64,000 nt of DNA from a virus (IMGVR_UViG_3300025127_000022:12276-76275); one strand, 5' to 3'; shown: positions 6,761 to 35,390, counted from the stretch's first letter. Numbers and translations: made by a program. The notes: generated from the letters alone by a model not told the origin.

Positions 6761-7126
6761 ATGAAAACTTTTAAAATCTTATCTGCTTTAATATTAACAT
6801 TAATGTGTTTTACCGCACAAGCACAAAGTAAAATGAATAAAATTCCTCAGTATGGGGTAGTGGTGGTAGAATTTAACGCTGGATGGAATTCCTCTAAAAA
6901 TGTTACTTGGATTAACAAGTTAAAAGAGGCAGAAGTGGGGAGACTCTTGATAGACGAAAATCCTAAATTCCAATCAAAATATAAAATAGTGGTTGTGCCG
7001 ACTCTAATAGTCTTTAAAGATGGTGTGGAAGTGCAAAGATTCCAAGCTAATATTATGATGGACATGGAAGCTACTTTAGAAGATGTTCAAGAGGGTGTGG
7101 ATGATGCACACATGGAAGGATTTTAA
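6761..7126 (+). CDS. exported thioredoxin-fold protein lacking CxxC
   Basis: Signal peptide; VVVEFNAGWN replaces FxAxWCxxC; YKIxxVPTLIVFKDG cis-Pro motif. Confidence 0.75.
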   Translation: MKTFKILSALILTLMCFTAQAQSKMNKIPQYGVVVVEFNAGWNSSKNVTWINKLKEAEVGRLLIDENPKFQSKYKIVVVPTLIVFKDGVEVQRFQANIMMDMEATLEDVQEGVDDAHMEGF

Positions 7127-7365
7127 CGTCTAAAACCTTTTATTTCAGTTCTAGTTCCCATTCCAATCATAGTATTAATAAAATTAATCCTTTCTTCTAT
7201 TTTGTTCTTAGCGATTTGTAAAATTTCTAAATCAAATTCTGAGTCTACCCAATTTACAAAATCCTCACTACTAAAAGAAGCTTCATAATTTGTCAAATCG
7301 ACCTCTTCTTCTATTTTATTTAGAAGTTTTTGATACTGGTGTTCTGTTAAAATAACTTTAGACAT
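7123..7365 (-). CDS. small protein with class-A leader
   Basis: MSKVILTEHQYQKLL; minus-strand TATTTATA at 7382-7389. Confidence 0.7.
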   Translation of the reverse strand: MSKVILTEHQYQKLLNKIEEEVDLTNYEASFSSEDFVNWVDSEFDLEILQIAKNKIEERINFINTMIGMGTRTEIKGFRR

Positions 7366-7496
7366 GTACTATTCTTTTTATTATAAATACTTATAAGTTA
7401 GGCAAGTTACTCCACCGAATAAACTTAATTTATTTATAGGACACGTTACACTTTTAAGATAATTTTTCCTATATTTGTATCACAAAAAAAAATGTT

Positions 7497-7706
7497 ATGG
7501 GAAAAATGAAAGAAGTTTTTATGAAAGAAAGAGAATCAGAAAATGATAAATATGTAGATGAATCCTATTTTTATAATAAATGGAAAGAGGAACAACAAGA
7601 ACCAAAAAATTACATCGGTGGTGATGAAGATTTTGTAGACTTTGTTGATGAATTACCTCCTGTAGTTCGAGAATATAAACCTGTGGACGATTCTAACGAA
7701 TACTGA
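7497..7706 (+). CDS. small acidic hypothetical protein
   Basis: Preceded by host-type TATATTTG at 7470-7477. Confidence 0.65.
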   Translation: MGKMKEVFMKERESENDKYVDESYFYNKWKEEQQEPKNYIGGDEDFVDFVDELPPVVREYKPVDDSNEY

Positions 7707-7760
7707 TATCTTTTCTTTAAAAATTTTCTTCTTTTATACCTGGGTGGGTTAACCGCTAAC

Positions 7761-7877
7761 TTAAATTGAATCACCATATTTGTCTTTTAAGTATTTGTGC
7801 CATTCTTCTTGTTTTCTTCCGTTTACAAACATCCAACCTATTCTAAGGTCAAACCATCTTCTTAATTTTTTAATCAT
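7761..7877 (-). CDS. 38-aa hypothetical protein (not in ORF track)
   Basis: MIKKLRRWFDLRIGWMFVNGRKQEEWHKYLKDKYGDSI; overlaps the stop of the upstream same-strand gene. Confidence 0.5.
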   Translation of the reverse strand: MIKKLRRWFDLRIGWMFVNGRKQEEWHKYLKDKYGDSI

Positions 7878-8118
7878 ATTTAGTTTTTTTAATGTTTACA
7901 GTTATACCAGCTTTTCCTACCGATAAATCGTAAGTGTTACTTCTATTGTCATTTATGAATCCATAATCTTTAAAATAAAAAATAATTACTTCTTCATCAT
8001 TTAACCATCCATGGATAGCGTTAGTAGCGTAGTCAATTGAGGGGTGTTTTATATATTCCATCTTCCAAGACTCACGGTATTCCTCAACTAGTTCATCAGG
8101 GGTTATATGTATTATCAT
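7870..8118 (-). CDS. hypothetical protein
   Basis: 82-aa ORF in operon with thyA. Confidence 0.65.
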   Translation of the reverse strand: MIIHITPDELVEEYRESWKMEYIKHPSIDYATNAIHGWLNDEEVIIFYFKDYGFINDNRSNTYDLSVGKAGITVNIKKTKYD

Positions 8119-8120
8119 TT

Positions 8121-9128
8121 TTAATTACTAAGAGGTGCTTTAATCGGTGAGTGTGGGTTATAGTTTTCGAGAGACACTTCAGCGTATCCTAGTAACAAAT
8201 CTAGATTACCTACCTTAACGTTTGGTAACTCCATAGGTTCTCTACTTAATTGTTCCTTAGCTTGTTCAAGATGATTGTTATATAAATGTACATCACCTAA
8301 ATTTCCTATTAATTCACCTGGTACCATATTAACTTCTTTAGCGATTAATTTTAAAAGTAACCCATAAGATGCTATGTTGAATGGTAAACCTAAAAAGGTA
8401 TCTACAGAACGTTGGTTCCACATTAATGATAATATTCTTTTAGGTACTCTTAAAGAATCTAATTTAATGTGTGAATCTACATCATGTTCACAAAATTCCT
8501 GTCTTTCTTTTAGACTTAACTCTCTTGTATAAACTTGAAATCCATAATGACATGGTGGGAGAGTCATTTTATCTAGTTCACTCACATTCCATGCGTTAAC
8601 CATTAATCGTCTACTGTCTGGATTTGTTTGAAGTTCCTTTATAAGATTTTTGATTTGGTCAACAGAAGATTTGACATTAGGAAATGAGCCTTCATCAATT
8701 AATTGGTTATCGTATTTATCCCAATTCCTCCATTGTTTACCATACACTGGACCTAAATCACCCCACTTCTTTGCGAACTCACCATCTGTTTTTATTGCAT
8801 CAATGAATTCTGGTTGTGTCATCGTAGGGTAGGGATATGGAGATTCTTGACAATAAGCCTTATATGCGTCACCATCCCAAATATGACAATTGTTATCAAC
8901 AAGATATTTGATGTTTGTATCACCACGTAAGAACCATAATAATTCTGTCACAATTCCTTTCCAATACATTTTCTTTGTTGTTAGTAATGGAAAACCATTT
9001 TTCATATTATGTCTCACCGTGTAACCAAATATAGATTTGGTTCCTGTGCCTGTTCTGTCTTCTTTATCCACACCATACTCCAGTATAGTTTTAAGTAATT
9101 CTTGATATTGTTTATCTAAGTTGTTCAT
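8121..9128 (-). CDS. thyA: thymidylate synthase
   Basis: DRTGTGT, FPLLTTKK, LGPVYGKQWR, LPPCH, QRSVDxxLGLPFN and HLYxNH motifs. Confidence 0.97.
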   Translation of the reverse strand: MNNLDKQYQELLKTILEYGVDKEDRTGTGTKSIFGYTVRHNMKNGFPLLTTKKMYWKGIVTELLWFLRGDTNIKYLVDNNCHIWDGDAYKAYCQESPYPYPTMTQPEFIDAIKTDGEFAKKWGDLGPVYGKQWRNWDKYDNQLIDEGSFPNVKSSVDQIKNLIKELQTNPDSRRLMVNAWNVSELDKMTLPPCHYGFQVYTRELSLKERQEFCEHDVDSHIKLDSLRVPKRILSLMWNQRSVDTFLGLPFNIASYGLLLKLIAKEVNMVPGELIGNLGDVHLYNNHLEQAKEQLSREPMELPNVKVGNLDLLLGYAEVSLENYNPHSPIKAPLSN

Positions 9129-9502: not shown

Positions 9503-9561
9503 AATACTCCAATAATAAGAATTAGGTGGTAAAGTATCAAGTATATGATATTTATAAAATA

Positions 9562-10275
9562 ATGAAAACAGGTTTATTAGACATATTAAAAGAATCTATA
9601 AATGAAGGTGGGGTCAAAAAAGACCTTTACACTAATTTAAAATTATCTAAACGTAATGAATTTTACGAAGAAGATGATTTAACACAGATACCACTAAGCC
9701 CACAAGAAAAATATGATAGAGAGGTAACTGAACTAAGAGTTAAAAATGATAAACTATTCGAAAAAAAATTAAGGCATTATTTTACTTATTTACAACGTTT
9801 AGGTGGGATGGACGAAGTAAAAAATTCATTAGAAACTCATCCTGATGGCACAAGAAATGTCCCCGCTTATAAAGATGCGATAGGTGGATTAAAATTAGTT
9901 GGATTTAATCCTGAATATTATAGACCCTTATCTATGGACTTAATGGATAAAATTTACGTGTTAGTCGTTAATTATATACACAATGGTGGAGACAGTAGAA
10001 ATTTTATGGAAGGACCTTTAGACATTATACCCGCTAAACAGTGGGACGTAGATACCGATTACTCAGAAGACGTGATTGAATATGGAACGTCTTTTGGTTC
10101 CGCGTATGGTGATAATGAAGAGCGTGTTAAAGAACTGGTGTTAGCTCATCCATGGCATTTCGAACAAGATAGAGAGACTCACGACCATGATTATGTGGGG
10201 GACTACAAAAGCAAAAAAATAACAAATCTATCAGTTAAGGACATTAAATTAGTAAGACAAGCATTTGAACGATGA
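9562..10275 (+). CDS. late hypothetical protein, probable paralog of 12747..13556
   Basis: TATTTATA at 9549-9556 then ATG 9562 (ORF track starts at 9526); leader MKTGLLDILKESINE. Confidence 0.7.
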   Translation: MKTGLLDILKESINEGGVKKDLYTNLKLSKRNEFYEEDDLTQIPLSPQEKYDREVTELRVKNDKLFEKKLRHYFTYLQRLGGMDEVKNSLETHPDGTRNVPAYKDAIGGLKLVGFNPEYYRPLSMDLMDKIYVLVVNYIHNGGDSRNFMEGPLDIIPAKQWDVDTDYSEDVIEYGTSFGSAYGDNEERVKELVLAHPWHFEQDRETHDHDYVGDYKSKKITNLSVKDIKLVRQAFER

Positions 10276-10463
10276 AAAATATAGAAAACAAAATTAAAAG
10301 AATGAGGAAATTAATGTTGGAGTCTGAAGGTAGCCCTGAAGAAAACGACTTTATAGATGGTGTCAGAGACATATTAAAAAAACAGAAAGAGAACAAGGAT
10401 GAGAACGCTTATTACGATGATTTCCAAAAACTATTCAAAAAATTAGACATACCTTTTCATTAA
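10272..10463 (+). CDS. small protein with class-B-like leader
   Basis: MKNIENKIKRMRKLMLESE. Confidence 0.6.
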   Translation: MKNIENKIKRMRKLMLESEGSPEENDFIDGVRDILKKQKENKDENAYYDDFQKLFKKLDIPFH

Positions 10464-10501
10464 ATTTGATTTTTAAGTTAAAGTTACTTATATTTTAAGT
10501 A

Positions 10502-11347: not shown

Positions 11348-12199
11348 ATGAAAAAGTTACTCCTCGTACTACTATTGTTAGTACCATTTCTAGCTAAAAC
11401 TCAATGTAATAACGGAACAAATTATTATCCATCTTCAATATACACCCCAACACCTGATACTTGGGGGTATGCCTCTACATGTAACTGGGCAGGAGAAGTA
11501 ATGAGAATGAATATTGTATCAGGAGACTCATATCAATTTTCTACTTGTGATAATTATGGAGGTGTGCTTGCAAGCTATGATACACAAATCACTTTACGTG
11601 ATGGTAGTGGTACATTATTAGCATATAATGATGACTTTTCTGGTTGTTCTGGGTTTTCATCTTACTTGAATTGGACAGCAACTTATACAGGTGTATTATA
11701 TGTTCATTTGAATGAATACAATTGTGCAACAAATATGGTATGTACAAGAATAATGGTATACCGAACAGAACCTATATCATTACCTATTACATTACATTAC
11801 TTTGATGCATTTCACATAGACAATATCGATAATACAATTCAAATAGAATGGATAACATATTCTGAACAAAACAATGATTATTTCACCGTATTAAAATCTT
11901 ATGATGGATATGAATGGTCTGAATTATGTAAGGTACCTGGTGCTGGAAATTCTAATATGGAATTATCATATTCAGTAAGAGATACAAATCCTCGACCAGG
12001 TGTACAATATTACAAATTACGACAAACCGATTATGATGGGCAGTGGGAAGAATTCGATGTTGTATCAGTAATAATCAAAACAGAACGTAAAGAAATTGTA
12101 AGAGCTTACAATCAAATGGGTCAAGAAGTTGGTATAGATACTAAAGGCCTCTTATTTCTAGTGTGGGATAATGGTGATGTAACAAAAATTATAAACTAA
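11348..12199 (+). CDS. secreted Bacteroidota-type protein with probable short T9SS-like C-terminal domain
   Basis: Signal peptide; PPC-like YQFSTC...DTQITL...AYNDD; LPITLxYF...IEWxTxSExNNDYF...YYKLRQTDYDG domain; YNQMGQEV...G..TKII end. Confidence 0.7.
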   Translation: MKKLLLVLLLLVPFLAKTQCNNGTNYYPSSIYTPTPDTWGYASTCNWAGEVMRMNIVSGDSYQFSTCDNYGGVLASYDTQITLRDGSGTLLAYNDDFSGCSGFSSYLNWTATYTGVLYVHLNEYNCATNMVCTRIMVYRTEPISLPITLHYFDAFHIDNIDNTIQIEWITYSEQNNDYFTVLKSYDGYEWSELCKVPGAGNSNMELSYSVRDTNPRPGVQYYKLRQTDYDGQWEEFDVVSVIIKTERKEIVRAYNQMGQEVGIDTKGLLFLVWDNGDVTKIIN

Positions 12200-12746: not shown

Positions 12747-13556
12747 ATGAAAAACGACATCCGTAAAGTTTTAAGAGAATACTGGGACAACCAACCAGAT
12801 AAATGGGGGTTGTTAGAAATGGATGTTCGTGCTCTTACCGATAGAATTATTGAACGTCACAAAGATAACTGGGACGGGGACCAATACGCTGTTATTGATG
12901 CAATACAACAAGTATTTGAAGGTATGTTCGAAAAAGTACCAATTAATGAAGTCGTAGATACTGTTGGTGGTGGAGAAGAAAAGTTAAAAGACTCTGGTAA
13001 TACTCTTATCGGGTCACAACACTATAGAGGTTATGGTGAGAATACGGGTTATTACGCTGAAACTATAAATAAAGATATGTTTTTTAACCTAATAAAAGCA
13101 ATCGTCCAGTATACCCCTTGGGAAAAAATAGAAGAACTTAATGATGATGAAGCGTGGCGTTGGTCGGAAGTTATAAACCCCATAGTTAAAGTATTTGGTA
13201 TTAAAGATATAAACTATTCACCAGACGGATTAGGTACAAGAATTTGGTTTACAATTAAAAACCCTAAAAATTATGATGGTATAAAAGATGGTACCATCAC
13301 TAACGTTAATGGATTAGAAATACCTGAAAGAAAAACTTTTGAAGTTTATATGGAACAAACTGAGAGGGAAAATGTAAGTTATAGATATACTGTAACTGTT
13401 GAAGGTTATGATGAAGACGCTGTTTATAGTGCAGTAGAATACGATGAAGATGGTGAATATAATTGGTATGACTATGAAGACAGTAAAGGTTTTGATAGGG
13501 AAGTGTATGATGGAGAGTCAATGGAAAAAGAAGTTATATCCATAAAAGAAGTATAA
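12747..13556 (+). CDS. late hypothetical protein with leader
   Basis: TATTTATA at 12735-12742; MKNDIRKVLRE; internal PINE site. Confidence 0.75.
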   Translation: MKNDIRKVLREYWDNQPDKWGLLEMDVRALTDRIIERHKDNWDGDQYAVIDAIQQVFEGMFEKVPINEVVDTVGGGEEKLKDSGNTLIGSQHYRGYGENTGYYAETINKDMFFNLIKAIVQYTPWEKIEELNDDEAWRWSEVINPIVKVFGIKDINYSPDGLGTRIWFTIKNPKNYDGIKDGTITNVNGLEIPERKTFEVYMEQTERENVSYRYTVTVEGYDEDAVYSAVEYDEDGEYNWYDYEDSKGFDREVYDGESMEKEVISIKEV

Positions 13557-13580: not shown

Positions 13581-14183
13581 ATGAAAAGAAAAGTCACAAA
13601 TAACGACATTAGAAAAGCCATTAGGGGAGTTATAAATGAAGGACATAGTTCGTATATGGCTAAGTCTCAGTTATACAACATCGCTAGAAAAGCACAAAGT
13701 ATGTACGACCAATTAGAAAAGGGTGAACCTTTGGAAGATTGGATGGAATCTAATATTGCAAAAATGGACAATATGATGGACAGTGTTAGTGACGCTTTCT
13801 CATATGACCAACACCAGGAGAGAAGTTGTCCAGATGGAATGTACTGGTGTAATGAAGACCAAATTTGTAAACCTGACTCACAAGATATGAGTATTATGGT
13901 TTCTACACAGGAAATGAATGAAGCTATAGGTTTTACTAAAAGTTATGAGGGTGAGTTAAAGACTCATATGGATGCTTTTATTAACATTGTATGTGGTTAT
14001 ATAAAAGAACAAGTAAGTAAAAAATCTATGTATGGGGATGAAGTGATAGTACAAAGATTATATCAGTTATTAGCTGAGGGAGGAGAACTACATTCTCCAG
14101 TACAAGAACTTATAGATATAATAGATAACTTACCTAATAAAGACCAAGGACCGATGGGTTTTAGAATAGGACAAAATTATTAA
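13581..14183 (+). CDS. late hypothetical protein with leader
   Basis: TATTTATA at 13569-13576; MKRKVTNNDIRKAIRGVINE. Confidence 0.75.
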   Translation: MKRKVTNNDIRKAIRGVINEGHSSYMAKSQLYNIARKAQSMYDQLEKGEPLEDWMESNIAKMDNMMDSVSDAFSYDQHQERSCPDGMYWCNEDQICKPDSQDMSIMVSTQEMNEAIGFTKSYEGELKTHMDAFINIVCGYIKEQVSKKSMYGDEVIVQRLYQLLAEGGELHSPVQELIDIIDNLPNKDQGPMGFRIGQNY

Positions 14184-14185
14184 AA

Positions 14186-15466
14186 ATGACAAAAATTTTA
14201 ATCTCAGAAAAACAATTAGAAAGACTAAGTAAAATAGTTTTAAAAGAACAGAATAGACCTGTTACTGTAAGTCCAGGAGAATTGGTTCAGATGTATATGA
14301 CAAACGACTTAAATAAAATTCTTTTAAGTAAACAAGATGAACTCGCGGGACAATATTTTATAGCTATTGTTGGGAATGATGAACAAATACAATTAAGATA
14401 TGGTGAAAATGGTAGTGAAGGAGCTGAATTTGAAATGGAAGATTTTGGTACGAGAGGAAAAAGATTTAGACTACCCATTGGTAGATGGTCTATAACAGTA
14501 CCTACTAACGATATTGATTTAATAGCTGAATTAGAAAATTCAGAACCTTATGGGAAAGATTATAAAGCGTTTTTTGCTGTTAATGACGATTTAACTAATT
14601 ACGTTAAAAGAGAAATAAATAGAGTTAAAGTTAAATTTTTATTCTATATAGATAGACAAGCATCTAGTGACGGTTTCGGAGGTTTTACATTTTACCAATT
14701 ACCAGGGAGGAAAAAACCTAAAGGGGTACCCATAGTTAATTTAGGGCAATCTTTCCCTATAACTGAAATTACTCCACTAGGAAGTAAAAGAGGTTCGAGA
14801 GCTAATACGATGGGACTCAAACTTGGTAAAAGAATTTACGGTGAGGTTTATGGTTCAGGACTACAAGCAAAACTCGAAAGATTACAATTAACTATCCCAG
14901 CTGAATTATTACCCCAAAAACCAGGAGGCGACCCAATAACAACACCAGATATACCAGAAGAAGATATCATCATACCTATATTTTCAGTTGTGGGTGCTAA
15001 TTTACCATATGCGGATAATATGATTATGCCTTACTTTAACAAATATCCACAAGCTGAAGAACATTTTGGTAAAATAGTTGAAGCTTTTGTAAAATATATA
15101 AATGCGGGTGGTGGTGACAAACTTACTAATGTAACTATTAAAGGTAGTGCAGATTCAGCAGCACCAAATGAAAAGGTTCCTAGTGGCTATAATAAATTAG
15201 ACCATCCAGGAGGTAAACTTTTCGGTGGAATTCCAAAAACTGACTTAAAAGGAAGAAACCAATGGTTGGCAGATAATAGAGCAAAACAATACGCTAATGC
15301 TTTAATTACAGCCATTAAGGATAGAACTGGATTTGATTTGAAGATAGAAGTATTACCTGGAGATAACTACTATGGTCAAGGAAGTAGTAAACGAGGTCAG
15401 GAATATAGAAAAATTACATTAACACCAAACGCTCCAACACACAAGGGTCCATCACAGAAAAAATAA
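14186..15466 (+). CDS. leader-bearing protein with C-terminal OmpA-like peptidoglycan-binding domain
   Basis: MTKILISEKQL...VLKE; VTIKGSAD...NQWLADNRA...YRKITL pattern. Confidence 0.6.
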   Translation: MTKILISEKQLERLSKIVLKEQNRPVTVSPGELVQMYMTNDLNKILLSKQDELAGQYFIAIVGNDEQIQLRYGENGSEGAEFEMEDFGTRGKRFRLPIGRWSITVPTNDIDLIAELENSEPYGKDYKAFFAVNDDLTNYVKREINRVKVKFLFYIDRQASSDGFGGFTFYQLPGRKKPKGVPIVNLGQSFPITEITPLGSKRGSRANTMGLKLGKRIYGEVYGSGLQAKLERLQLTIPAELLPQKPGGDPITTPDIPEEDIIIPIFSVVGANLPYADNMIMPYFNKYPQAEEHFGKIVEAFVKYINAGGGDKLTNVTIKGSADSAAPNEKVPSGYNKLDHPGGKLFGGIPKTDLKGRNQWLADNRAKQYANALITAIKDRTGFDLKIEVLPGDNYYGQGSSKRGQEYRKITLTPNAPTHKGPSQKK

Positions 15467-16074: not shown

Positions 16075-17412
16075 TTAAGATATTGACTTACAAGGGTTAA
16101 ACGCTTTTCCTAGAGGTCTTTCATTTCCAGAAACATCTCCACTAATTTTTCCGTAAGGTTCTTTCGGACCATAAATTATTTTTTCTAATTTTCCATTTCT
16201 ATCTACAGTGTACGCACATATCATAGGTGCATCACCATGGTATCCTTTTGTTTGACCTTTATCACTTCTTGTTAAACTACCTTGTTTACCCTCTATACTT
16301 AATTGTAATAAACCTGTAGGTGATTTTTCTATCATTTGTTTTAATAATTTGTCGTTAACTGCAAATACATTAACAGCTGACTCTCCCTCACCACCTCTTC
16401 CTGGTTCTGTTGGGGGTGGTTTACTAGGGGAAATTCTTTTGATTAAATTAGGATTATCTGATTTAGAAATACCCAGTCTAGTTCCACTCTTTTTCTTAAA
16501 GTACCCCTGACCGTTATTCATATTAGCAATACCGACTTCCACCCCATTACATTTAATATTAAAGGTAGCAAAATCACAACCATGTTCTCTACTACTTGCT
16601 GGTACAGTAATCCCATCAATAGTCTCACCACCACCACCTTTTTTAAAATAACCTACAATTATTCTTAGTCCACTAGCACATTTAAATAATTTTTCTTTTT
16701 GACCCGCACTAATTGAAAACCCGGCAAAAAAAGTAATGTCAACATATTGTCCAGGGTTGGGATACTTTGAAACATCTCTTTTTTCATCAATACAACCTCC
16801 AGTATCAGTAATTTTTGCGGTTATGTTTTGAGGAGTAATTTCATTCTTTACTGCAAATCCTATATCTTTACCTTTCTTTTTAATTGTACTAATTAATTTT
16901 TTCCATCTGTTTTCTGCATAACCCAGATTTTGGTCCCATCTTGTATTACCCGCTTTAGGTAAAGTTTCAAATGGGGGTTGGGAAAGCTCTACATCTGTAT
17001 ATTCCTTTCCTACATTATTATAAGTGGGTTGTAAAGCATATTCATTGTAGTTACTAGCGGACCCCACAACTCGTTGAACAGTGAGTACATCTATACTATG
17101 AGTATCTAAAAAATTTTTATTTTTAGGGAGTTGTTCTATCAATTTTTGTTTTACCATTAACAATGCTTTTTCATAAACTTTTTCACTAGATATGGTAGCT
17201 CCAAAGTAAGCTGTAAATCTAATTTTACACCTTTCTGGCTTACCATCATCACCTTTACTAACGGCTACGGTACGGAGCTTAGGGTCTGGAATATTATTAC
17301 TTCCACTACAATTACCATATTTTTCTTCTTGCTCAGTAATGGTTTCACCTATATTATAATCTATAAGTGATTTCATTTTTCTGATTTCGTTCTCTACTAA
17401 ATGTCTTTTCAT
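16075..17412 (-). CDS. class-B leader protein with a possible divergent OmpA-like segment
   Basis: MKRHLVENEIRKMKSLIDYNIGETITEQ; VVGSASN...NLGYAENR...GQYVDI. Confidence 0.55.
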   Translation of the reverse strand: MKRHLVENEIRKMKSLIDYNIGETITEQEEKYGNCSGSNNIPDPKLRTVAVSKGDDGKPERCKIRFTAYFGATISSEKVYEKALLMVKQKLIEQLPKNKNFLDTHSIDVLTVQRVVGSASNYNEYALQPTYNNVGKEYTDVELSQPPFETLPKAGNTRWDQNLGYAENRWKKLISTIKKKGKDIGFAVKNEITPQNITAKITDTGGCIDEKRDVSKYPNPGQYVDITFFAGFSISAGQKEKLFKCASGLRIIVGYFKKGGGGETIDGITVPASSREHGCDFATFNIKCNGVEVGIANMNNGQGYFKKKSGTRLGISKSDNPNLIKRISPSKPPPTEPGRGGEGESAVNVFAVNDKLLKQMIEKSPTGLLQLSIEGKQGSLTRSDKGQTKGYHGDAPMICAYTVDRNGKLEKIIYGPKEPYGKISGDVSGNERPLGKAFNPCKSIS

Positions 17413-18105: not shown

Positions 18106-19746
18106 ATGAAAAAAATGAAAAAGAATTTAATTAACGAAGACATCAGAAAAATGATGGGTCTTATCGATTATGATAGGGGTAAAACTTTAACAGAAAATAA
18201 AGAATCTAATAAATCACAATTATTAAATGAAATTTTTCCCGCATTAGTAGCCTACGGTGCTGTAGCTGCAGGTCTATATAAAGCATGGGAATGGGGAGTA
18301 GACGCTTGGGGTTCTAAAAGTATAGATGCAAGAATAACTGACGCTTTAGACCAGACAACTTGGCCAAAAATCGAGAAGGCTATTAGAGAGACTGAGAAAG
18401 CAACGGGAGAAGATATTGAAGGAAAGTTTGATGTGGCAAGTGCATCAGAAGCTAAAAGAATGGCTAACGATTTAAATGCAGCATTTGATTATACATTCGG
18501 AACAGATGAGGACAAAATAGGTGATACATTTGCTGATATGGGTTCATTTATGGATTTAGCACGTGTTTCTTATGAATATGGTGACCGTCCTGACGGTGAT
18601 TTAGCTTATGAATTAGACGACGAATTGAGTCAATCTGATTTTAAAACTTACGTAAGTAATAATATGAAAAGTAAACCTTTAGCTGTTTTTAATGGTAAAT
18701 CTTACGATAGTCTAGAGAAATTATTAGCTGCTATAGCAGAAATGGCTAAACCAGCTGAGGAAGAAAAAACACCTAAATCAATCATTAAAGAAAAATTTGA
18801 AAATTTCCCATGTGTTCAGGTAGAAATTGAAAACGCAAAAGAAATTAAATACCCTTATAAAGGAAAAGAGGACCGAGTATATATTATCGCAGAAAATGGC
18901 GACCTAATGTTAGTAACAGTAGATGGAAGGTATAAAGCTAAAGTGGGTGGAGAAGTATCTTCAGGTAATATTGAATGTCCAGATGATTTTAGTATTGAAG
19001 ATGAAGGAGAATTAACATTATCAGAAGGTAGATATATTTTTGAACAAAACTTTGGTGGTATTAAATTAAATCCTAAAGGTAAACCTGCTGATGATGCCTC
19101 TGGTGAAGAAGAAGGTGGTGGAAGTTCATCTGGTGGAGGAAGTTCATCTGGTGGGGGAAGTAGATATACTAGAACCGATTTAGATTATATGGATGTTGTA
19201 TCTTGTAATGGTGAAGTAAAAAAAGGTGATAGAGGACAAGTAGTGAAAGACATTCAATCAAAATTAAATGAATCTCCTAAAGTAAATCCTAAATTAAAAG
19301 TAGATGGTATATTCGGTTCAAAAACTGAAGCAGCCATTAAACAAGCGGGGGGGACAAATGTATTTAACTGTGAACTTGCTAAAGCATTAGACGCTGAATC
19401 TAATAAACCTGAAGATAATGTAGCGGGTAAAGAAGAAAAAGATGGTGGTGAAAAAATAAGCCAAGCAGAAGCTAACGAACTAGATAAAGTTACAATAGAA
19501 AAAGAAGGTACTGATAAAGTGACCATTAAAGACCAGATAGCTGATTTAAATCAAGCGATTAGTCAACAACCTACTAAAGATGATTGTAAAGATTTAATTG
19601 CAAGTGCAGCCGCAGGAATAAAGATGGGTGTTCGAGTGAATGACCTTGGTTCATTAAAACAATGTTTTAATTCATATAATTTTTTCCCTTCTATTTCAGC
19701 GGGGAAAGTTAAAAAAACTTACGGAATAAAAGGAAAAGGTAATTAA
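18106..19746 (+). CDS. putative internal virion protein: class-B leader, annexin-like repeat, PG_binding_1 domain
   Basis: GTDEDKI...Y...LxxELDDELS; KKGDRGQVVKDIQSKL...VDGIFGSKTEAAIK. Confidence 0.7.
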   Translation: MKKMKKNLINEDIRKMMGLIDYDRGKTLTENKESNKSQLLNEIFPALVAYGAVAAGLYKAWEWGVDAWGSKSIDARITDALDQTTWPKIEKAIRETEKATGEDIEGKFDVASASEAKRMANDLNAAFDYTFGTDEDKIGDTFADMGSFMDLARVSYEYGDRPDGDLAYELDDELSQSDFKTYVSNNMKSKPLAVFNGKSYDSLEKLLAAIAEMAKPAEEEKTPKSIIKEKFENFPCVQVEIENAKEIKYPYKGKEDRVYIIAENGDLMLVTVDGRYKAKVGGEVSSGNIECPDDFSIEDEGELTLSEGRYIFEQNFGGIKLNPKGKPADDASGEEEGGGSSSGGGSSSGGGSRYTRTDLDYMDVVSCNGEVKKGDRGQVVKDIQSKLNESPKVNPKLKVDGIFGSKTEAAIKQAGGTNVFNCELAKALDAESNKPEDNVAGKEEKDGGEKISQAEANELDKVTIEKEGTDKVTIKDQIADLNQAISQQPTKDDCKDLIASAAAGIKMGVRVNDLGSLKQCFNSYNFFPSISAGKVKKTYGIKGKGN

Positions 19747-22251: not shown

Positions 22252-22281
22252 CTAAATGTGAAATAAAATATATTTATTGGT

Positions 22282-23691
22282 ATGAAAATTAAATTATCTG
22301 AAGAACAGTATAAAAAATTGATGAACGAAATAGGTGGGTATGATGACCCAGCTACAGGTATGAGAGATGAACAAGCTATGATGGATAGAGTAATCGAAGC
22401 TTATAAAAATCTCACAAACGGAATGAATATACTTAGTGATTTAATTCCAGGTGTCATAGTACAAGACCGTCTGAGAAACCAACTGATGGAAATTAGAGAA
22501 TCTTTAGTTAATCCGTTAAATGGATTTAGTGCACTATTGAGGGATATCCATGGTCAACAAGATGAAGGACATATGGAAGATACAGATATCGAATTAGATG
22601 AAGGAAGAAAAAAGAAAAGAAAATCTAAAAAGAAAAAATCTAAAAAGAAAAAATCTAAAAAAGGTGATAGGTGTACTAGAATAGCTAAAAGAAAATATGA
22701 TGTATGGCCTTCAGCTTATGCGTCAGGTGCGGTAGTTAGATGTAGGAGAGGAGAGATTTGGAAAGGACTTAACGAAGAAGATATTTCAAATGTTAATGAA
22801 GGTTGGTCTGACGAATATAAAAAATCCATAGATTGTAATAACCCAAAAGGATTCTCACAAAAAGCTCACTGTGACGGTAAAAAAAAAGCGTCACTAGAAG
22901 AAGCTAAAAGAAAAAAAAGAAAATCAAAAAAAAGAAAGTTAACTTCTAAACCTAGTTCTGAAGGCAGTTTACGTGATTGGTTTAAAAGAAAAGGTGCTAA
23001 AGGTAGTACTGGAGGTTGGGTAGATTGTAACGCACCCGATGGTGATGGTGGTTATAAATCCTGTGGTAGACAAAAAGGCGAAAAAAGAAGTAAGTATCCC
23101 GCTTGTAGACCAACACCGTCCGCGTGTAAAAGTAAGGGCAAAGGTAAAAAATGGGGAAAAAAAGCTTCACGTAACGAATCTTTAATGTACCACCTAAAAA
23201 ATAATATTCCTTTAAATGAAAGTGTTTTTAGATATGGGAGTGACTCTCACTTTAACTTAATTAATGACGCTAGAAATTTATTTAAAGAAAATGAGTTACA
23301 ATTAAATCCTGTAGAAAAAGATTTGGTGGAAAGTGATATGGGTAGATTTGGTTATTACCAAAATGAGTTAGTCCCGTTAGACTTACCAATGGAACTTAAT
23401 GAAGCTGAATATAGAGGTAAAAAAGTTACATTAAACAAACCTAAAAGAGGTGGGTCTAAAGCGTATTACGTTTACGTTAAAAATCCAAAAACAGGGAATG
23501 TTAAAAAAGTGGCTTTTGGTTCTTCAGGTCTTAGAGCAAAAATTAATAATCGAGGTGCTGTTAAGAGTTTTGTAGCACGTCATAGATGTAAAGAAAAAAA
23601 CGATAAAACTAAACCAGGTTATTGGTCCTGTAGATTACCTAGATATGCTAAATCTTTAGGATTATCTGGTGGAGGTGGACAATGGTGGTAA
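22282..23691 (+). CDS. multi-module basic protein (putative head-packaged polyprotein)
   Basis: Class-A leader; Lys-rich Cys-containing modules each starting after an LDE/VNE/LEE/LNE site. Confidence 0.7.
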   Translation: MKIKLSEEQYKKLMNEIGGYDDPATGMRDEQAMMDRVIEAYKNLTNGMNILSDLIPGVIVQDRLRNQLMEIRESLVNPLNGFSALLRDIHGQQDEGHMEDTDIELDEGRKKKRKSKKKKSKKKKSKKGDRCTRIAKRKYDVWPSAYASGAVVRCRRGEIWKGLNEEDISNVNEGWSDEYKKSIDCNNPKGFSQKAHCDGKKKASLEEAKRKKRKSKKRKLTSKPSSEGSLRDWFKRKGAKGSTGGWVDCNAPDGDGGYKSCGRQKGEKRSKYPACRPTPSACKSKGKGKKWGKKASRNESLMYHLKNNIPLNESVFRYGSDSHFNLINDARNLFKENELQLNPVEKDLVESDMGRFGYYQNELVPLDLPMELNEAEYRGKKVTLNKPKRGGSKAYYVYVKNPKTGNVKKVAFGSSGLRAKINNRGAVKSFVARHRCKEKNDKTKPGYWSCRLPRYAKSLGLSGGGGQWW

Positions 23692-23695: not shown

Positions 23696-23956
23696 ATGAA
23701 TTTTCCATTTAAAGAACATACCCAAGATGGGTACCACATTAGAACTTTTTCACAAAAAGTAGATAGTGAAGAATTAATGTGGCATAGAGACAAAGAAGAT
23801 AGAATAGTGGAATCTGTTGGTGACACTAACTGGATGATTCAACTAGATGACAAATTACCACAACCACTAACAGAAAAAGTATTTATACCCAAAGAGGTGT
23901 ATCACAGAGTAATAAAAGGAAATGGTGATTTAACAGTAAAAGTTAAAAAATTATGA
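23696..23956 (+). CDS. cupin-like protein
   Basis: WHRDxEDR and FIPKxxYHRVIKG metal-binding cupin pattern; ATG 23696 follows the upstream stop. Confidence 0.65.
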   Translation: MNFPFKEHTQDGYHIRTFSQKVDSEELMWHRDKEDRIVESVGDTNWMIQLDDKLPQPLTEKVFIPKEVYHRVIKGNGDLTVKVKKL

Positions 23957-24600
23957 AAATTAGAATAACAGAGTCACAATATAATTTAATTCTAGAAGGT
24001 AAAGAAGATAACTTTAAAAGAGTTAAACTTCCTTATGACTATTCTGATTTAGAAAAATTTGTCGGTAGAGAAACCATGTGGGAGCACTATAATCGTCATT
24101 ATAAAGGTTACACCACCAAACTTAATGAAGCGTTTTCCCATAGAAAAAATCCACCTAAAGATATTGTAGGTATTATTAAAAACATTGGTAGGTACGATAA
24201 ATTTACCAGAGATAATGCGGGTGGTTATTATAATCATAGTTTATTCTGGAATTACTTAAGTCCTAAACCTACTAAACCCTCACCAGAATTAAGTAAAAAA
24301 ATAAATGAGGATTTTGGGAGTATGTCTAAATTTAAAAAGAAATTTGACGAAGAGTCTGCTAAAGTTTTTGGTTCAGGTTGGTGCTGGTTAGTATTTAAAA
24401 GTGGTAAACTCAAAGTTATTACTACACCAAACCAAGATAACCCTCTTATGGATAATTTAGGTAAACCTCTTTTAGGGTTAGATGTGTGGGAACACGCTTA
24501 CTATTTAAATTACATGGCAGACCGTAAAAAATACATTAAAAATTTCTGGAAAGTAGTTAACTGGGATACAGTTTCTAAAGAATTTAATTTGGTAGTTTAA
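23953..24600 (+). CDS. sodA: Mn/Fe superoxide dismutase with N-terminal class-A leader
   Basis: LPYxYxxLE, H...H..Y, NAGGxxNHSLFW, FGSGWxWL, NQDNP and DVWEHAYY motifs. Confidence 0.93.
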   Translation: MKIRITESQYNLILEGKEDNFKRVKLPYDYSDLEKFVGRETMWEHYNRHYKGYTTKLNEAFSHRKNPPKDIVGIIKNIGRYDKFTRDNAGGYYNHSLFWNYLSPKPTKPSPELSKKINEDFGSMSKFKKKFDEESAKVFGSGWCWLVFKSGKLKVITTPNQDNPLMDNLGKPLLGLDVWEHAYYLNYMADRKKYIKNFWKVVNWDTVSKEFNLVV

Positions 24601-30289: not shown

Positions 30290-30385
30290 AGATAAATGTT
30301 TTAAATGTGTGTATTTTGTCTTTAATAGTACAAAGATAAATAATTATTCTTTAATAACCAAATATTTATAGGAAAAAAGTATAAA

Positions 30386-30709
30386 ATGGGAAACGCATTT
30401 AAATTAAGTCTTCATCTTGAACATATTGTAAAAGATATAGTTAACAAGAAAAAAGTGCACTACACTGAAGAAGGTTTAAGAGAAAACATATTTACCTTTC
30501 TTGATACTATTTATGATAATAGGAAGAAGTTTAAATTGACCGAAGCAACAAAATTAATTAAGGGAGGTTTTAGGGACCAATTAATTGAAGAAGCTGTATG
30601 TGAAATGTCAGATGATGAAGATTATCTTACTTCTACTATTAATAAAAAAATTAATAACCTTTCAAAACACTACATAAGAGAGTGGATAAATAAAAAAATA
30701 AGCAAATGA
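30386..30709 (+). CDS. late hypothetical protein
   Basis: TATTTATA at 30363-30370. Confidence 0.65.
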   Translation: MGNAFKLSLHLEHIVKDIVNKKKVHYTEEGLRENIFTFLDTIYDNRKKFKLTEATKLIKGGFRDQLIEEAVCEMSDDEDYLTSTINKKINNLSKHYIREWINKKISK

Positions 30710-31026
30710 AAAAAGTAATAAGACTTACTGAATCTGAATTAGTTAGAATTATAGAGAATTTAACCTTAGGTCATGAATTAGAAGAAAAAAAAGAAACCTC
30801 TAAAACAAAAAGTGAACCATTACCTAAAAGTGCTAATCCCGTAGCTAAAGATATTTTTAAAAAAATTGAAGGACATTTAAATGCAACTAAAGGAGCTTTC
30901 AGCTTAAAAGATAAAAATGTAACTGAAAATTTTGAAGACGATAAGTTGTATAAGAAATGGAATTGGAAAACCAATAATGGTAAAGTTAATGTAACTGTTA
31001 CTGTTGATGTTAAAATGAATGATTAA
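30706..31026 (+). CDS. class-A leader protein
   Basis: MKKVIRLTESELVRIIE. Confidence 0.7.
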   Translation: MKKVIRLTESELVRIIENLTLGHELEEKKETSKTKSEPLPKSANPVAKDIFKKIEGHLNATKGAFSLKDKNVTENFEDDKLYKKWNWKTNNGKVNVTVTVDVKMND

Positions 31027-31028
31027 TA

Positions 31029-32120
31029 ATGAATAAGGTAACAGTAAATGAAACTGAATTAATTACAATCATTAAAACAATGATTAGTGAACAAGAAGGT
31101 ACTGCTGGAGGTGGTGTTGAAGCTGGAACTTCAGATGCTGGTGGTACTGGTGCAAAAACGTGGGAAACTGGTTTAACCAGAGGTTCAGCTAATCCTGCTG
31201 GTGGTGGTGTAAGTCACTGGGCAGACTCTTATTCTATTAGTAGAGGTAAAGCAAATCCTTTATGGGAAGATAGTGATGAAGAAGGTATGTTTGATATGGA
31301 GGTAGAAGATGATGGGTTTACTACAGCAGATAGAGATATTAGGTCTTATTATAACAAACCTTCATTTGATGAGATGAAAAGAAAACATTCATTAGATTAT
31401 GATACAGAGTTTGATGTGGACTTACTAAATGAAAGTAAGTGGTACAATACTTTTTTAGATTTTGTGGGGATTGTAGACCCAACAGGTATCGCTGATGGTA
31501 TTAACGCCATGTCTTACTTTAGACAAGGTGATATTCTATATGGAATGTTAAGTTTGATATCTCTAGTACCATATGTTGGAGACGCTATAGCTAAACCATT
31601 TATTGGTTTAATGAAAGCAGGAAAAATAAATGCTAAAGCTATTAACGCTGGACTTAAAAGTGGTAATGCTGCTAAAGTAGCTTCGGAGATGGGTAAAACA
31701 AAGGCTGGTAAAGCTGTTCTTGAAAGTATGAAAAATCCATCAACACAAGGATTCTTAGGTAAGATAATATCTAAAATAGGGAAATTACCAGGATTTAGGG
31801 CTTTCTCTAAAGACGCAAAGACATATGTTAGAGTATTCACTCAAGCAGCAAAACAAACAGGAAAAGTTAAAATATTCCGTAAGAGTGGTGGATTACTAAC
31901 TAGAATGCAAAGAAAAGGATTATTAAACAGAACAAAATTATATTCTAAATTTATAAACTACCTTACAGGAACTGGTGTAGGAGCAGCAGCAATAGAAGGT
32001 ATGGATGAAGGAACATTAAATGGCAAATTTGAGGAATTTTTAAAGTCAGACGAGGGAACCAGTTTCTTTAACGACTTAAATAAACAAGACCAAGGAGATT
32101 TTGTGGATGCCTTAAAGTAA
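31029..32120 (+). CDS. class-A leader protein with pre-toxin TG-like segment
   Basis: LDFVGIVDPTGIADGINA...GD...GMLSLISLVPYVGD. Confidence 0.65.
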   Translation: MNKVTVNETELITIIKTMISEQEGTAGGGVEAGTSDAGGTGAKTWETGLTRGSANPAGGGVSHWADSYSISRGKANPLWEDSDEEGMFDMEVEDDGFTTADRDIRSYYNKPSFDEMKRKHSLDYDTEFDVDLLNESKWYNTFLDFVGIVDPTGIADGINAMSYFRQGDILYGMLSLISLVPYVGDAIAKPFIGLMKAGKINAKAINAGLKSGNAAKVASEMGKTKAGKAVLESMKNPSTQGFLGKIISKIGKLPGFRAFSKDAKTYVRVFTQAAKQTGKVKIFRKSGGLLTRMQRKGLLNRTKLYSKFINYLTGTGVGAAAIEGMDEGTLNGKFEEFLKSDEGTSFFNDLNKQDQGDFVDALK

Positions 32121-32170
32121 TAAACAATAAATTTTAATAGATAACTAAATATTTATAAAAAAAAACAAAA

Positions 32171-34528
32171 ATGGAAAAACCTAAAATGTCATTGACCGAA
32201 GAACTAAGAAAAATAGACCATTTAAATGGCTATGATAAAGAATTTACCTTAGAAGAGTCAAAAAAATACAGTGAAGAAACTAAAAATCGTACTTACGATT
32301 TAAACATATTAACAGAAGAAGAAGCTAAAATCAAATATAAAGATTTTTTAAATGAGGGAAAAAAACCTGAACTACTTCTAGAATTTTTACCTGCTATTGC
32401 TAGTGGTATCGTTAGACTTTTACCTTTTGCTGGAAGAGCTCTTGCAAGTGTAGGTAGGTTCGGAGCTAGAGGGGGTAAACTATTTAAAAAGTTTCCTAAA
32501 ATGGGAAAAGCTTTAGGTTTTGGTAAAATTTCAACAAAAGGATTAAACCTTGGTAAGGCAACTCCATTAGCTGCTAGAGGTTTTACAGGTGCGGGTGGTA
32601 AAATGGGTGGTAAAGTAGTACCAGGTTTACTTAATGCACAAGCTACTAGAGGATTAGGTTCTTTACTTACATGGGGAACTGGAGCGTGGTTGGTTAACTC
32701 TTTTGCAAGTGGTAGTAGTACCCCTTTACCAGGAGACGCGGTAGCGGGTCAAGAAGATTGGGCAAATGGTGAACAACCATCAAAAGAAGATTGGATGTCT
32801 ATGTGTTTTGCACCCGAGTACTATGAAAGTTTAGTACAAATGGATAATGATGATAGTAATGTAACCGTAACTTTTCAGTCAGAAGCAGATATTGTACAAA
32901 TCGCAACAGCTATTAATGACGCTACTGAAGGTGGTGAAAAATATTTTGGTAAAGGTATTGTTGATTTTTTAACTTTTGATGTAGCCGCGGGAGCAGGTAC
33001 TGACGAAGACACTATTTTTAGAGCCTTCCAACAAATTAATACTGTTGGGGACTGTTCACATCTAGCTAAAATGTATCAACTTAAATTTGATGTTCCTTTA
33101 ATAGAGGAATTATATGATGAATTAGATGAAGCTGACTTAAATCAAATTTACAATATTCTAAAAGGAAAACCATTAGCAATTATTAATGGTAAAAGAATAT
33201 TCACTAATGATGATTTAGATGAGTTATTAGAAAAAGAAGCTAAAGAGGTAATTGAAAGACCTGAAGGTTTACCAGCTTATAGATTAAAATTTAATAGTTT
33301 ATTTGGAGGAGCACTGGTAGATGTATTTGTAGGTGTGGATGACGCGGGAACTTCAGCATTAGCAGCTGTATTTAAATCTGGTAGTAAAGATTATTTGGGA
33401 CAATTCCAATATGTAGAAAACTCTGAAGAAAAATACTTTTTCCAAACACCAACAGGTGAAGTAGGTGCAGTTACTGATGAAGACGACAAAGCAAAACTTG
33501 CAAAAATATTCGGTAAAGCAGATGATGAATCAGACGCGGAAAAAGATATATTAATTTTAACTAAAGATATTGAAGTTGATGGTACAATATATGATGTAGA
33601 CGAAAATTTGGCAGACATCGAAGGACCAGAAGGTACTGCTGATGAATATATAGATGAGTTAGTTAGAGATAACCCTACTACAGCTAAAAGAAAACCTACC
33701 GCACTCCAAGGAGCTGCTATCGCATTAGCGATGGGTGTTAAAGATTTTGAGGTTTTAACAGAATCAATCACAGGATTAGCTGAAGTTTTAGGTGAAAGTA
33801 AATTAGTCGTAGAACAAAAATACACCGTTAACTTTGATAAAGATGATGACAAATACTCAATTCGAAGAGTAAGAAGAACAAGTGGAAATACTGAAGAAAA
33901 ACCAGAAACTACAAAAGATGATAGTAGTAGTAGTTCATCTTATGGTGTAGCACCAACGTTAACTGCAGTTGCAGCTGGTAATGGGATAATCAAGAAAGGT
34001 ATGAGAGGAGATTCAGTAGCAGCAATACAAAGAATGTTAAATATGAGTCCTATAACTGGTATATTTAATTCAGCTACAGAAAAAGAAGTGAGAGATTACC
34101 AATCTTCAAATAGACTTAAAGTAGATGGTATAGTTGGTCCAGAAACTGCTGGTTTAATGGTTAAAGGAATGGATTTTAAAGGAAATGAAAAACCTACACC
34201 AGAAAGAGAAGTCGCTTCTTCGGAAACCAAATCTACTGAAGAAGAAATAAAAAATACTTCTGGAAGATTTAGTAGTAAAGATGCCGCTGAACAAAGTTTA
34301 AAGAATCTAGAAAAGATAAACGATACCAAAGCTACAAAAAGTGAATGTGTAATGGTTATAGCTGCAGCATCTAAAGCACTACCAACAATAGGAGGACCTA
34401 ACACTTATAAAGTATTACAATACTGTTACGCAGCGTACAACTTTGGTTTAGGAAAAGAAACTAGACGTGTTAAAAGAGCGTATGGAATTAAAGGTGACGG
34501 TGATTTAAGAAATAAAAGAAGAAGATAA
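32171..34528 (+). CDS. putative internal virion protein: class-B leader, amphipathic peptide, annexin-like repeat, PG_binding_1 domain
   Basis: GAGTDEDTI...Y...F...LIEELYDEL; KKGMRGDSVAAIQRML...LKVDGIVGPET; paralog of 18106..19746. Confidence 0.7.
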   Translation: MEKPKMSLTEELRKIDHLNGYDKEFTLEESKKYSEETKNRTYDLNILTEEEAKIKYKDFLNEGKKPELLLEFLPAIASGIVRLLPFAGRALASVGRFGARGGKLFKKFPKMGKALGFGKISTKGLNLGKATPLAARGFTGAGGKMGGKVVPGLLNAQATRGLGSLLTWGTGAWLVNSFASGSSTPLPGDAVAGQEDWANGEQPSKEDWMSMCFAPEYYESLVQMDNDDSNVTVTFQSEADIVQIATAINDATEGGEKYFGKGIVDFLTFDVAAGAGTDEDTIFRAFQQINTVGDCSHLAKMYQLKFDVPLIEELYDELDEADLNQIYNILKGKPLAIINGKRIFTNDDLDELLEKEAKEVIERPEGLPAYRLKFNSLFGGALVDVFVGVDDAGTSALAAVFKSGSKDYLGQFQYVENSEEKYFFQTPTGEVGAVTDEDDKAKLAKIFGKADDESDAEKDILILTKDIEVDGTIYDVDENLADIEGPEGTADEYIDELVRDNPTTAKRKPTALQGAAIALAMGVKDFEVLTESITGLAEVLGESKLVVEQKYTVNFDKDDDKYSIRRVRRTSGNTEEKPETTKDDSSSSSSYGVAPTLTAVAAGNGIIKKGMRGDSVAAIQRMLNMSPITGIFNSATEKEVRDYQSSNRLKVDGIVGPETAGLMVKGMDFKGNEKPTPEREVASSETKSTEEEIKNTSGRFSSKDAAEQSLKNLEKINDTKATKSECVMVIAAASKALPTIGGPNTYKVLQYCYAAYNFGLGKETRRVKRAYGIKGDGDLRNKRRR

Positions 34529-34541
34529 AATATAATAGATA

Positions 34542-35390
34542 ATGTCTAAAATACAATTTAAAGAATCAGAATTAGTATCATTTATTGAAGATTTAGTAAA
34601 TGAAGAAAAAGTAAAACAACAAAAACCAGTTCTTTCAGAATCAAAAGAAAGAAAAATAGGTATATGGATGGATAGATTTTCCAGAAGAAATCAAGGTAAA
34701 TCACCAGACACTATATTTGAAAACTATGTACAAGAAATCCATAGATTAAATAGAAATGGGATTACTACTGACGACTTATCTAACTATCTTGTAAAACATG
34801 AAAATATACTTAGTGAACAAGCTGCATTTACAATGTCTCAAAACCAAGGAGTTATGGGTACATTGTGGGAAACAATTCGTGAAAAATTATATAGATGGAT
34901 TTTAGGTTTTATGGGCATTAAAGACGGTGAATTAAAAGAAATACTTGCAACATCTCTAGGTAACGTACCATTTACCCAGTTACCTAAATTAATGAATTGT
35001 GAATACTTAACTCCTATATTAACTAAAGGTGTTTTAGAATATGGTGTAAGAAGAGTTAACAGACAATTAACTGGTATGGGTGGAACAGTAGAACAAATAT
35101 TTGGTAACTCACTGACTAACTTAGGTGATAACATGGAATTCTATAAAGAATTAGAAAAACAAGTAAGAGACTATCTATGTGGAGCTTTAGGTAAAAAGAA
35201 AGACCAAGTACAGGATGCTTTAAAGGATGTAGAAGAAAAGAAAAACCAACAATTTAAAGGGCAAGACCTTGGTGGTGGTGGAGAAGTACCACCTGAAACA
35301 TCAGGTCAAGGTACCGCATCTTCTGGTGGCGGACTTAGTGATATAGCTCAAAAGTATTTCCAACAGTTTATGCAAAATCTCGGAAGATAA
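34542..35390 (+). CDS. class-A leader protein
   Basis: MSKIQFKESELVSFIEDLVNE; further VLSE and ILSE sites. Confidence 0.7.
   Translation: MSKIQFKESELVSFIEDLVNEEKVKQQKPVLSESKERKIGIWMDRFSRRNQGKSPDTIFENYVQEIHRLNRNGITTDDLSNYLVKHENILSEQAAFTMSQNQGVMGTLWETIREKLYRWILGFMGIKDGELKEILATSLGNVPFTQLPKLMNCEYLTPILTKGVLEYGVRRVNRQLTGMGGTVEQIFGNSLTNLGDNMEFYKELEKQVRDYLCGALGKKKDQVQDALKDVEEKKNQQFKGQDLGGGGEVPPETSGQGTASSGGGLSDIAQKYFQQFMQNLGR

Follow-up and report, generated by a model that had tools for sequence, protein, structure and literature searches.

Portable N-terminal leaders on unrelated proteins of a marine jumbo phage fragment as candidate capsid-targeting propeptides

Results

A few kinds of leader on otherwise unrelated proteins

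The DNA analysed here, referred to as the window, is a stretch of 64,000 nucleotides that corresponds to bases 12276-76275 of a 76-kb viral contig (IMGVR_UViG_3300025127_000022; G+C ~32%). Between its positions 7123 and 35390, a few kinds of short N-terminal leader, which we also call tags, sit on at least 14 otherwise unrelated proteins of this fragment, a superoxide dismutase (SOD) included. A T4-type head module, with terL at 49614 and the portal gene at 51676, lies further along the window. Genes are named below by their lower coordinate, with a minus sign for the minus strand.

The leaders of the first kind, class A, had been reported on seven genes, and all seven are present with the N-termini quoted for them. 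They encode an 80-residue protein whose leader ends in I-E-E (7123..7365, minus strand), a 426-residue protein with a weak class-A leader ending in L-K-E/Q (14186..15466, plus strand; the slash marks the candidate cut), a 469-residue protein with a short leader ending in M-N-E/I-G-G (22282..23691, plus), an Fe/Mn SOD with a 20-residue leader ending in I-L-E/G (23953..24600, plus), a 106-residue protein in which the leader is followed by a disordered linker and a small alpha+beta domain (30706..31026, plus), a 363-residue Gly-rich protein whose leader ends in I-S-E/Q (31029..32120, plus), and a 282-residue protein whose leader ends in V-N-E/E (34542..35390, plus). The orthologues of 22282 in L004, L005 and L007 keep the leader.

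The class-A tag can be written M-K-x-[IV]-x-[LIV]-[TS]-E-x-[EQ]-[LY]-x-x-[LI]. A search pattern derived from the seven genes matches only these, always at residues 3-5; it gave no further match in a six-frame translation of the 76-kb contig and a mean of 0.045 matches in 2000 shuffles of the proteome. The pattern is post hoc, having been taken from the seven sequences themselves, and three less circular tests were added. With leave-one-out hidden Markov models (HMMs), four of the seven genes came first among the non-members and two near the top, and 31029 failed. When the N-termini of 91 genes were compared blindly, each with all the others, the class-A and class-B groups emerged beside the signal peptides. 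Finally, an independent HMM was built from 32 metagenomic tagged proteins, none of them orthologous to window genes. Its six best matches, all from residue 1 and with E values from 8e-11 to 0.014, were 30706 (8e-11), 34542 (3.3e-7), 7123 (2.9e-5), 23953, 31029 (3.7e-4) and 22282. Six of the seven genes are recovered independently in this way, and 14186, which the independent HMM missed, is a weak member of the class.

Class-B leaders, described on 16075-, 18106 and 32171 and more weakly on 10272, are likewise there as quoted. They begin a 445-residue protein (16075..17412, minus), a 546-residue protein with a hydrophobic helix and a peptidoglycan-binding region (18106..19746, plus), a 785-residue protein with a hydrophobic helix and a PG_binding_1 domain (32171..34528, plus; Pfam, 1.7e-11) and, in a weak class-B-like version that reads K-I-K-R-M-R-K-L-M-L-E/S, a 63-residue protein in the operon behind 9562 (10272..10463, plus). 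Over their 30 N-terminal residues 16075- and 18106 are 53% identical (E 1e-5), with nothing else in common. The C-terminal halves of 18106 and 32171 are paralogous (E 8e-16), which reduces class B from three independent families to two, and this pair is the one exception to the claim that the domains behind the leaders are unrelated, which otherwise holds. Orthologues of 16075- retain the class-B leader, and a region search with that leader returned orthologues only.

A third form (D-I-R-K or I-L-K-E-S) begins a 237-residue protein (9562..10275, plus; I-L-K-E-S-I-N-E/G), a 269-residue protein (12747..13556, plus; D-I-R-K-V-L-R-E) and a 200-residue protein (13581..14183, plus; D-I-R-K-A-I-R-G-V-I-N-E/G). 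For the first of these, the ATG at 9562 was preferred as the start over a GTG at 9526. The original prediction had counted these three as related to class A; the leaders are present, but they are closer to class B than to class A. The third form also resembles a tag found on the SODs of other phages (K-I-L-R-E-S-F-I-V-E/A), the 9562 leader being among those that do.

Pfam and PHROGs searches left most of the tagged proteins unnamed, and an Atlas structure look-up returned nothing for 16075-. With a cargo that is mostly without known function, the description of these proteins as an arsenal is a guess.

Superoxide dismutases with and without a tag

The strongest evidence comes from the SOD at 23953 and its relatives. 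In this protein Sod_Fe_N is matched from residue 22 and Sod_Fe_C at 1.2e-41, and in the AlphaFold2 (AF2) model residues 1-20 have a predicted local distance difference test (pLDDT) score of ~60, with a helix at 7-16, and the enzyme fold scores >90. The AF2 model of the 30706 family has a helix at residues 9-21 and a disordered stretch at 22-40, followed by the small domain, and both models agree with a detachable tag. Cellular SOD relatives begin M-A-F-E-L-P-K-L-P-Y or bear hydrophobic Sec/Tat signals. Relatives of the phage type bear at least five different polar N-terminal extensions, among them class A, the K-I-L-R-E-S-F-I-V-E/A type that is like 9562, 12747 and 13581, an N-R-M-H-L-I-E-D...F-L-S-E/M type, and others; some of these other SOD tags are close in style to the T4 capsid-targeting sequence (CTS). 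The comparison supports the view that the window SOD is a host-type enzyme onto which a tag was grafted.

Among the 42 SODs flagged as having a polar extension, 34 have [LIV]-x-E 8-11 residues before L-P-Y; many of these are mutually related and do not amount to 34 independent events, although they span five or more types of tag. Of the eight exceptions, six or more are hydrophobic signal or lipoprotein sequences that had been misflagged. Given this spacing, a cut behind [LIV]-x-E would leave a near-cellular SOD N-terminus, and the series therefore offers strong, if indirect, support for removal at that motif. The SOD series fits a removable address, with tags that are grafted, interchangeable and closed by a constrained site. 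It also bears on the suggestion that classes A and B represent two sorting routes, for which we found no support: among orthologous SODs of related phages, a class-A tag in one is replaced by a D-I-R-K-type or other tag in another. Such exchange speaks for functional equivalence of the classes and led us to reject separate routes.

Some SOD relatives of 338-376 residues (P0111, P0114, P0135, P0141, P0145, P0148, P0154 and P0158) have ~125-165 extra N-terminal residues, with a tag-like stretch and with [LIV]-x-E 8-11 residues before the core; they may represent polyproteins that the head protease cleaves, or their starts may have been miscalled.

Spread and conservation of class A beyond the window

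A profile of 17 class-A leaders (A2), run against 1.84 billion representative proteins, gave 53 matches at E <= 1e-3, of which 44 begin at residue 1, and yielded the consensus M-K-K-I-R-L-T-E-S-E-L-x-x-L-I-K-K-V-I-N-E-Q. All the matches checked are unnamed metagenomic proteins. When 59 tagged proteins of at least 80 residues were grouped by the sequence after residue 30, they fell into 42 families, in which PG_binding_1 and DUFs were the only recognisable domains. The original prediction that the leaders are portable was thereby extended, since class A sits on at least 42 dissimilar families and is kept at the peptide level: leaders are 54% identical in nucleotides and use the same codon for only 56% of identical residues, which points to selection on the peptide and not on the DNA. 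A recently spread DNA cassette was rejected on the same ground, as leader codons are not conserved. Orthologues down to 57% identity retain the leader, and the linker after it varies.

With a back-translated DNA pattern, 18 IMG/VR contigs were found, on which tagged genes often stand several side by side. Their capsid genes, where present, are 60-80% identical to that of the window, an S77 protease is present in 5 of the 18 fragments, and related large contigs carry 5-9 class-A genes each. The bearers of class A all belong to a single low-GC clade of marine jumbo phages whose head genes are of the T4 type. The tag was found in none of the T4, immuto and Mel-JY01 genomes, a 484-kb uncultured phage gave one marginal match, and a tblastn search of cultured phages with a 34-residue tag gave none. 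Searches for related loci with 14186, P0034 and P0064 found nothing, and a literature search found no publication on these tags.

In some metagenomic proteins (P0038, P0041, P0043, P0055, P0080 and P0084) two class-A tags stand in tandem, ~20-30 residues apart, and some short open reading frames (ORFs) consist of little else. Possible explanations are fragments at contig ends, double tags with a higher affinity, and polyproteins that are cleaved.

The same figures bear on the possibility that the leaders have no shared function and are diverged paralogues, or a product of composition at AT-rich gene starts. AT-rich genomes favour starts such as M-K-K, the pair 18106/32171 is paralogous, and 14186 and 31029 are statistically weak members. 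Set against this are a pattern that occurs nowhere else in the contig and 0.045 times in shuffles, the database matches with their concentration at residue 1, a host-type SOD that is tagged while cellular SODs are not, and codons that are not conserved. For the core set, these comparisons exclude both chance and paralogy, and an absence of shared function, largely refuted, is left as a very improbable explanation.

A transcription class common to tagged genes and head genes

Of 110 ORFs, 24 have the motif TATTTATW no more than 60 nt upstream, among them terL, the 53524 and 37137 genes, and the protease and putative scaffold genes described below; one example is at 22271..22278 (plus), 3 nt upstream of 22282, and further sites are at 49603 and 55062. 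It stands 5 nt upstream of 9562, 4 nt upstream of both 12747 and 13581, and 13 nt upstream of 32171, and TATTTATA lies 16 nt upstream of 7123-. As originally described, tagged genes fall into operons headed by this motif (16 of 17, against 38 of 80 other genes; p = 3e-4). The same bias appeared on the 18 other contigs, with the motif at 14 of 20 tagged genes and at 50 of 197 other ORFs (p = 1e-4).

The Bacteroidota-type -7 box TAnnTTTG lies within 60 nt upstream of none of the 17 tagged genes and of 12 of the 80 others, which suggests that these 12 untagged genes form a separate class transcribed by the host polymerase. They include 10672-, 15467-, 21749-, 29378-, 36273+ and 59529-.

Read on the opposite strand, TATTTATA gives the T4 late promoter TATAAATA, and we take TATTTATW to be a putative late promoter. 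Its distance from the ATG is preferentially either 3-5 nt or 11-18 nt, the longer spacer being A-rich; at 3-5 nt an almost leaderless transcript would result, unless the motif is something other than a -10 element.

Head genes and the candidate cut site

The window encodes a prohead protease of the T4 gp21 family (55083..55799, plus; Pfam Peptidase_S77, 2.2e-23; PDB 5jbl, T4 prohead core protease, 8.5e-14), which is presumed to be the enzyme that removes the leaders. Between it and the major capsid protein (MCP) lies the gene of a very acidic 569-residue protein with many [LIV]-x-E sites (55904..57613, plus), a putative scaffold by position and composition only. The MCP itself belongs to the Gp23 family (57651..59474, plus; Pfam Gp23, 1.5e-73; PDB T4 gp23).

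In the MCP, a candidate maturation site, H-L-I-N-E/A at residues 56-61, stands just before the conserved block and is kept in five relatives, one of which (L031) reads H-L-L-K-E/A; its L-I-N-E/A is of the same tetrapeptide type as the class-A leader end V-I-N-E. This site had been noted at 60/61 and set beside that of T4 gp23, which matures at 65/66 (a 521-residue precursor against mature chains of 456 residues). In the alignment, the candidate site lies ~15 residues closer to the conserved block than the T4 site.

T4 gp21 cuts after L/I-x-E (PMC9026906; PMC3012670). Leaders of class A and of the third form close with [LIV]-x-E, a motif that is read directly and behind which a cut is presumed. 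In 50 of 52 independent class-A leaders [LIV]-x-E has its Glu at positions 13-27, mostly 21-22, a count that is partly circular because the [LIV]-x-E column belongs to the detection model.

The nearest cultured phages, Flavobacterium phage immuto and Microcystis phage Mel-JY01, are distant, with portals ~39% identical. Related IMG/VR contigs reach 245 kb at an estimated completeness of 77%, which makes this contig a fragment of a ~300-kb jumbo phage. The host-type TAnnTTTG boxes and the nearest cellular SODs suggest a Bacteroidota host.

Discussion

Leaders as probable capsid-targeting propeptides

We interpret the leaders as T4-like capsid-targeting propeptides, analogues and not sequence homologues of the T4 CTS, and assign this reading a probability of roughly 0.6. 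Tagged proteins would be late products of the TATTTATW-headed transcription units that also serve the head genes. Their N-terminal 15-25 residues, predicted to begin with basic residues and to continue with a short hydrophobic stretch, a T/S-E-S-E helix cap and an amphipathic helix, would attach to the prohead core as it assembles. Once the shell is complete, the S77 protease of the gp21 family would cut behind the closing [LIV]-x-E, and the mature protein would be freed inside the head, from which it may leave with the DNA at infection. Core binding, cleavage, presence in the virion and ejection are all steps that we infer by analogy. In T4, internal proteins are targeted to the core by N-terminal propeptides of 10-19 residues, which are then removed (PMC9026906).

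The likeness to T4 is considerable. The CTS of IPI, IPII, IPIII and Alt, which is removed by gp21 (PMC9026906; PMC3012670), is likewise a short N-terminal propeptide on unrelated, fast-evolving proteins; T4 IPII and IPIII begin M-K-T-Y-Q-E-F-I-A-E/A, so that leaders of both kinds end in hydrophobic-x-Glu. Both genomes have an S77 protease and a Gp23 capsid protein, and in both the tagged genes are scattered and late-type. The differences are that the tags here are longer (15-25 residues against 10-19) and come in at least three sequence forms, that at least 14 tagged genes lie in 28 kb as against a handful in T4, and that an intact SOD and large peptidoglycan-binding proteins are among the cargo, unlike in T4. 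Packaging in T4 is known, whereas that proposed here is predicted from sequence.

Several observations weigh against our interpretation. Leader HMMs scored all of T4 IPI, IPII and IPIII (NC_000866) at <1 bit, so the analogy with T4 is one of architecture only. Behind the candidate cut, long class-A leaders mostly have Q, N or T and not the A/G typical of T4, [LIV]-x-E is a short tripeptide that is common in Glu-rich helices, and the class-B cut site T-[LI]-x-E, which had been put forward as part of that leader, is lost in two of six orthologues. The tandem double tags of some metagenomic proteins have no precedent in T4. TATTTATW also heads operons of exported, non-virion-looking proteins; the motif thus marks a transcription class shared with the head genes and not virion genes alone. 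The two large class-B proteins with a hydrophobic helix and a peptidoglycan-binding domain would fit membrane proteins of the infected cell equally well, and such domains together with a hydrophobic helix on several tagged proteins fit an action on the envelope. No cultured member of the clade was found in the phage collection searched.

The membrane and cell-wall features of the cargo underlie the main alternative. Here the tags would act inside the infected cell and take late proteins to a site such as the inner membrane or cell wall, or to a partner such as a lysis complex, a complex that remodels the envelope, or a protein with which they oligomerise; nothing would be loaded into the head, and [LIV]-x-E would simply belong to an amphipathic helix. 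Besides the hydrophobic helix and peptidoglycan-binding domain that follow the tag in 18106 and 32171, such a role would suit the PG_binding_1 domain in one metagenomic tagged protein, the possible OmpA-like C-terminus of 14186 (a lead only) and the exported proteins of the TATTTATW class. The phage, however, exports proteins through ordinary signal peptides, and the tags are polar and amphipathic, with no Sec, Tat or lipoprotein export signal among them; the true signal peptides of the contig cluster apart. The same tag sits on an SOD of cytoplasmic type and on many small soluble proteins, and, unless processing takes place, it is difficult to account for the constant spacing of [LIV]-x-E in SOD tags that are otherwise unrelated. 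Membrane and cell-wall modules are, moreover, also present in proteins that other phages eject. On balance we regard an address within the infected cell as unlikely.

A slightly smaller likelihood attaches to the tags recruiting proteins into the tail, baseplate, neck or another part of the virion, or staying uncut as a docking element. Co-expression with the head genes fits this equally, the tags are conserved like a binding element, and tandem tags exist. Yet the tag ends in a motif of the head protease, the SOD series points to removal, and the known precedent for a portable N-terminal tag in T4-type phages leads to the head core (PMC9026906).

Wider reading and known systems

Capsid targeting could extend over the whole clade as a plug-and-play system of head loading, with interchangeable tags, one protease site and about a fifth of the region's genes packed, a joint proposition to which we give a little less than an even chance. 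It covers ~300-kb marine jumbo phages of Bacteroidota type, which would gain cargo when a tag is grafted onto a host gene; the cargo would comprise an active Fe/Mn SOD, membrane-spanning peptidoglycan-binding proteins and dozens of unknown proteins. If true, the injected proteome of an ocean-wide uncultured jumbo phage clade, with dozens of unknown proteins that are the first to meet the host, could be listed from sequence only, and a T4-type phage would have recruited a host SOD as virion cargo by adding 15-25 residues. For the packaging of foreign proteins in phage capsids, the tags would also provide targeting peptides that are new and longer. As a case for testing, the SOD series is compact, with an assayable enzyme, at least five natural tags and a predicted neo-N-terminus.

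The jumbo phages phiKZ, 201phi2-1 and SPN3US have dozens of head-internal proteins that are cut after Glu by a gp21-type protease (PMC9026906; PMC5694885; PMC10052503). The phiKZ-like protease is a diverged gp21-like enzyme that cuts at S/A-x-E, with a small P3 residue as against L, I or V here, and these phages differ from the present one in capsid lineage and clade. To our knowledge, phiKZ-like propeptides do not form one portable consensus tag. Encapsulin cargo-loading peptides, like the tags described here, are short and portable and send diverse enzymes inside an HK97-fold shell; unlike them, they are usually C-terminal and are not removed, and they involve neither a protease nor a DNA-filled capsid.

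One tag on many unrelated proteins would also fit leader-guided modification, in which the tag is a recognition sequence for a modifying enzyme, as in radical-SAM-linked ribosomally synthesised and post-translationally modified peptides (RiPPs). Here, though, the cargo includes full-size folded enzymes. No Radical_SAM match exceeded the cut-off in this contig (G000) or in G001, G007 and G011, with a sub-threshold match only in G015, and a scan of ten untagged neighbour genes (15-37 kb) found no enzyme family except for a sub-threshold M42 peptidase match. A radical-SAM tag was rejected, no gene for a partner enzyme having been found in these contigs and neighbour genes, and RiPP-like modification in general is the least probable of the explanations considered.

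Additional observations on tagged and neighbouring genes

Residues ~250-417 of 14186 gave an OmpA-like (peptidoglycan-associated) fold as a lead in an Atlas structure look-up, with template modelling (TM) scores of 0.46-0.61 by target. Together with 18106, 32171 and P0046, this lead would make cell-wall binding a recurrent feature of the cargo. A ribbon-helix-helix DNA-binding domain, which has a similar strand-plus-helix start, was considered and rejected, as the tag in the model of the 30706 family is followed by a disordered linker and not by a second helix; one source names a homologue a 'transcriptional regulator'.

Three genes just upstream of terL, all on the plus strand, have leader-like N-termini. 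The first (44858-46369) begins in class-B-like fashion with K-K-L-Q-R-I-M-E-I-A-N-Y-G and is weakly similar to the scaffold-like 55904 (E 7e-6), domain-library scans having given no family match for either; the second (46750-48192) has N-Q-L-Q-A-L-R-E-R-V-L-N-E/Q at residues 33-46, and the third (48182-49585) starts M-K-S-K-R-T-L-K-E-F-K-R-Q-L-F-E/A. Upstream of the window, the contig carries three more tagged genes (G000:C1 ~3327-4238, 7002-7409 and 11482-11949), one of which starts L-K-E-E-I-N-R-I-N-Q-L-L-T-E, while the other two have E-K-N-R-I-L-x-L-H in common, a pair that the all-against-all comparison of N-termini also picks out. An internal E-T-S-R-I-R-N-L-H is found in 21405.

Finally, the 273-residue product of 36273-37094 (plus strand) resembles M42 glutamyl aminopeptidase at a score below the threshold (E 1e-4; 21.9 bits, cut-off 23.2), and its gene is conserved beside the block of tagged genes in all related loci.

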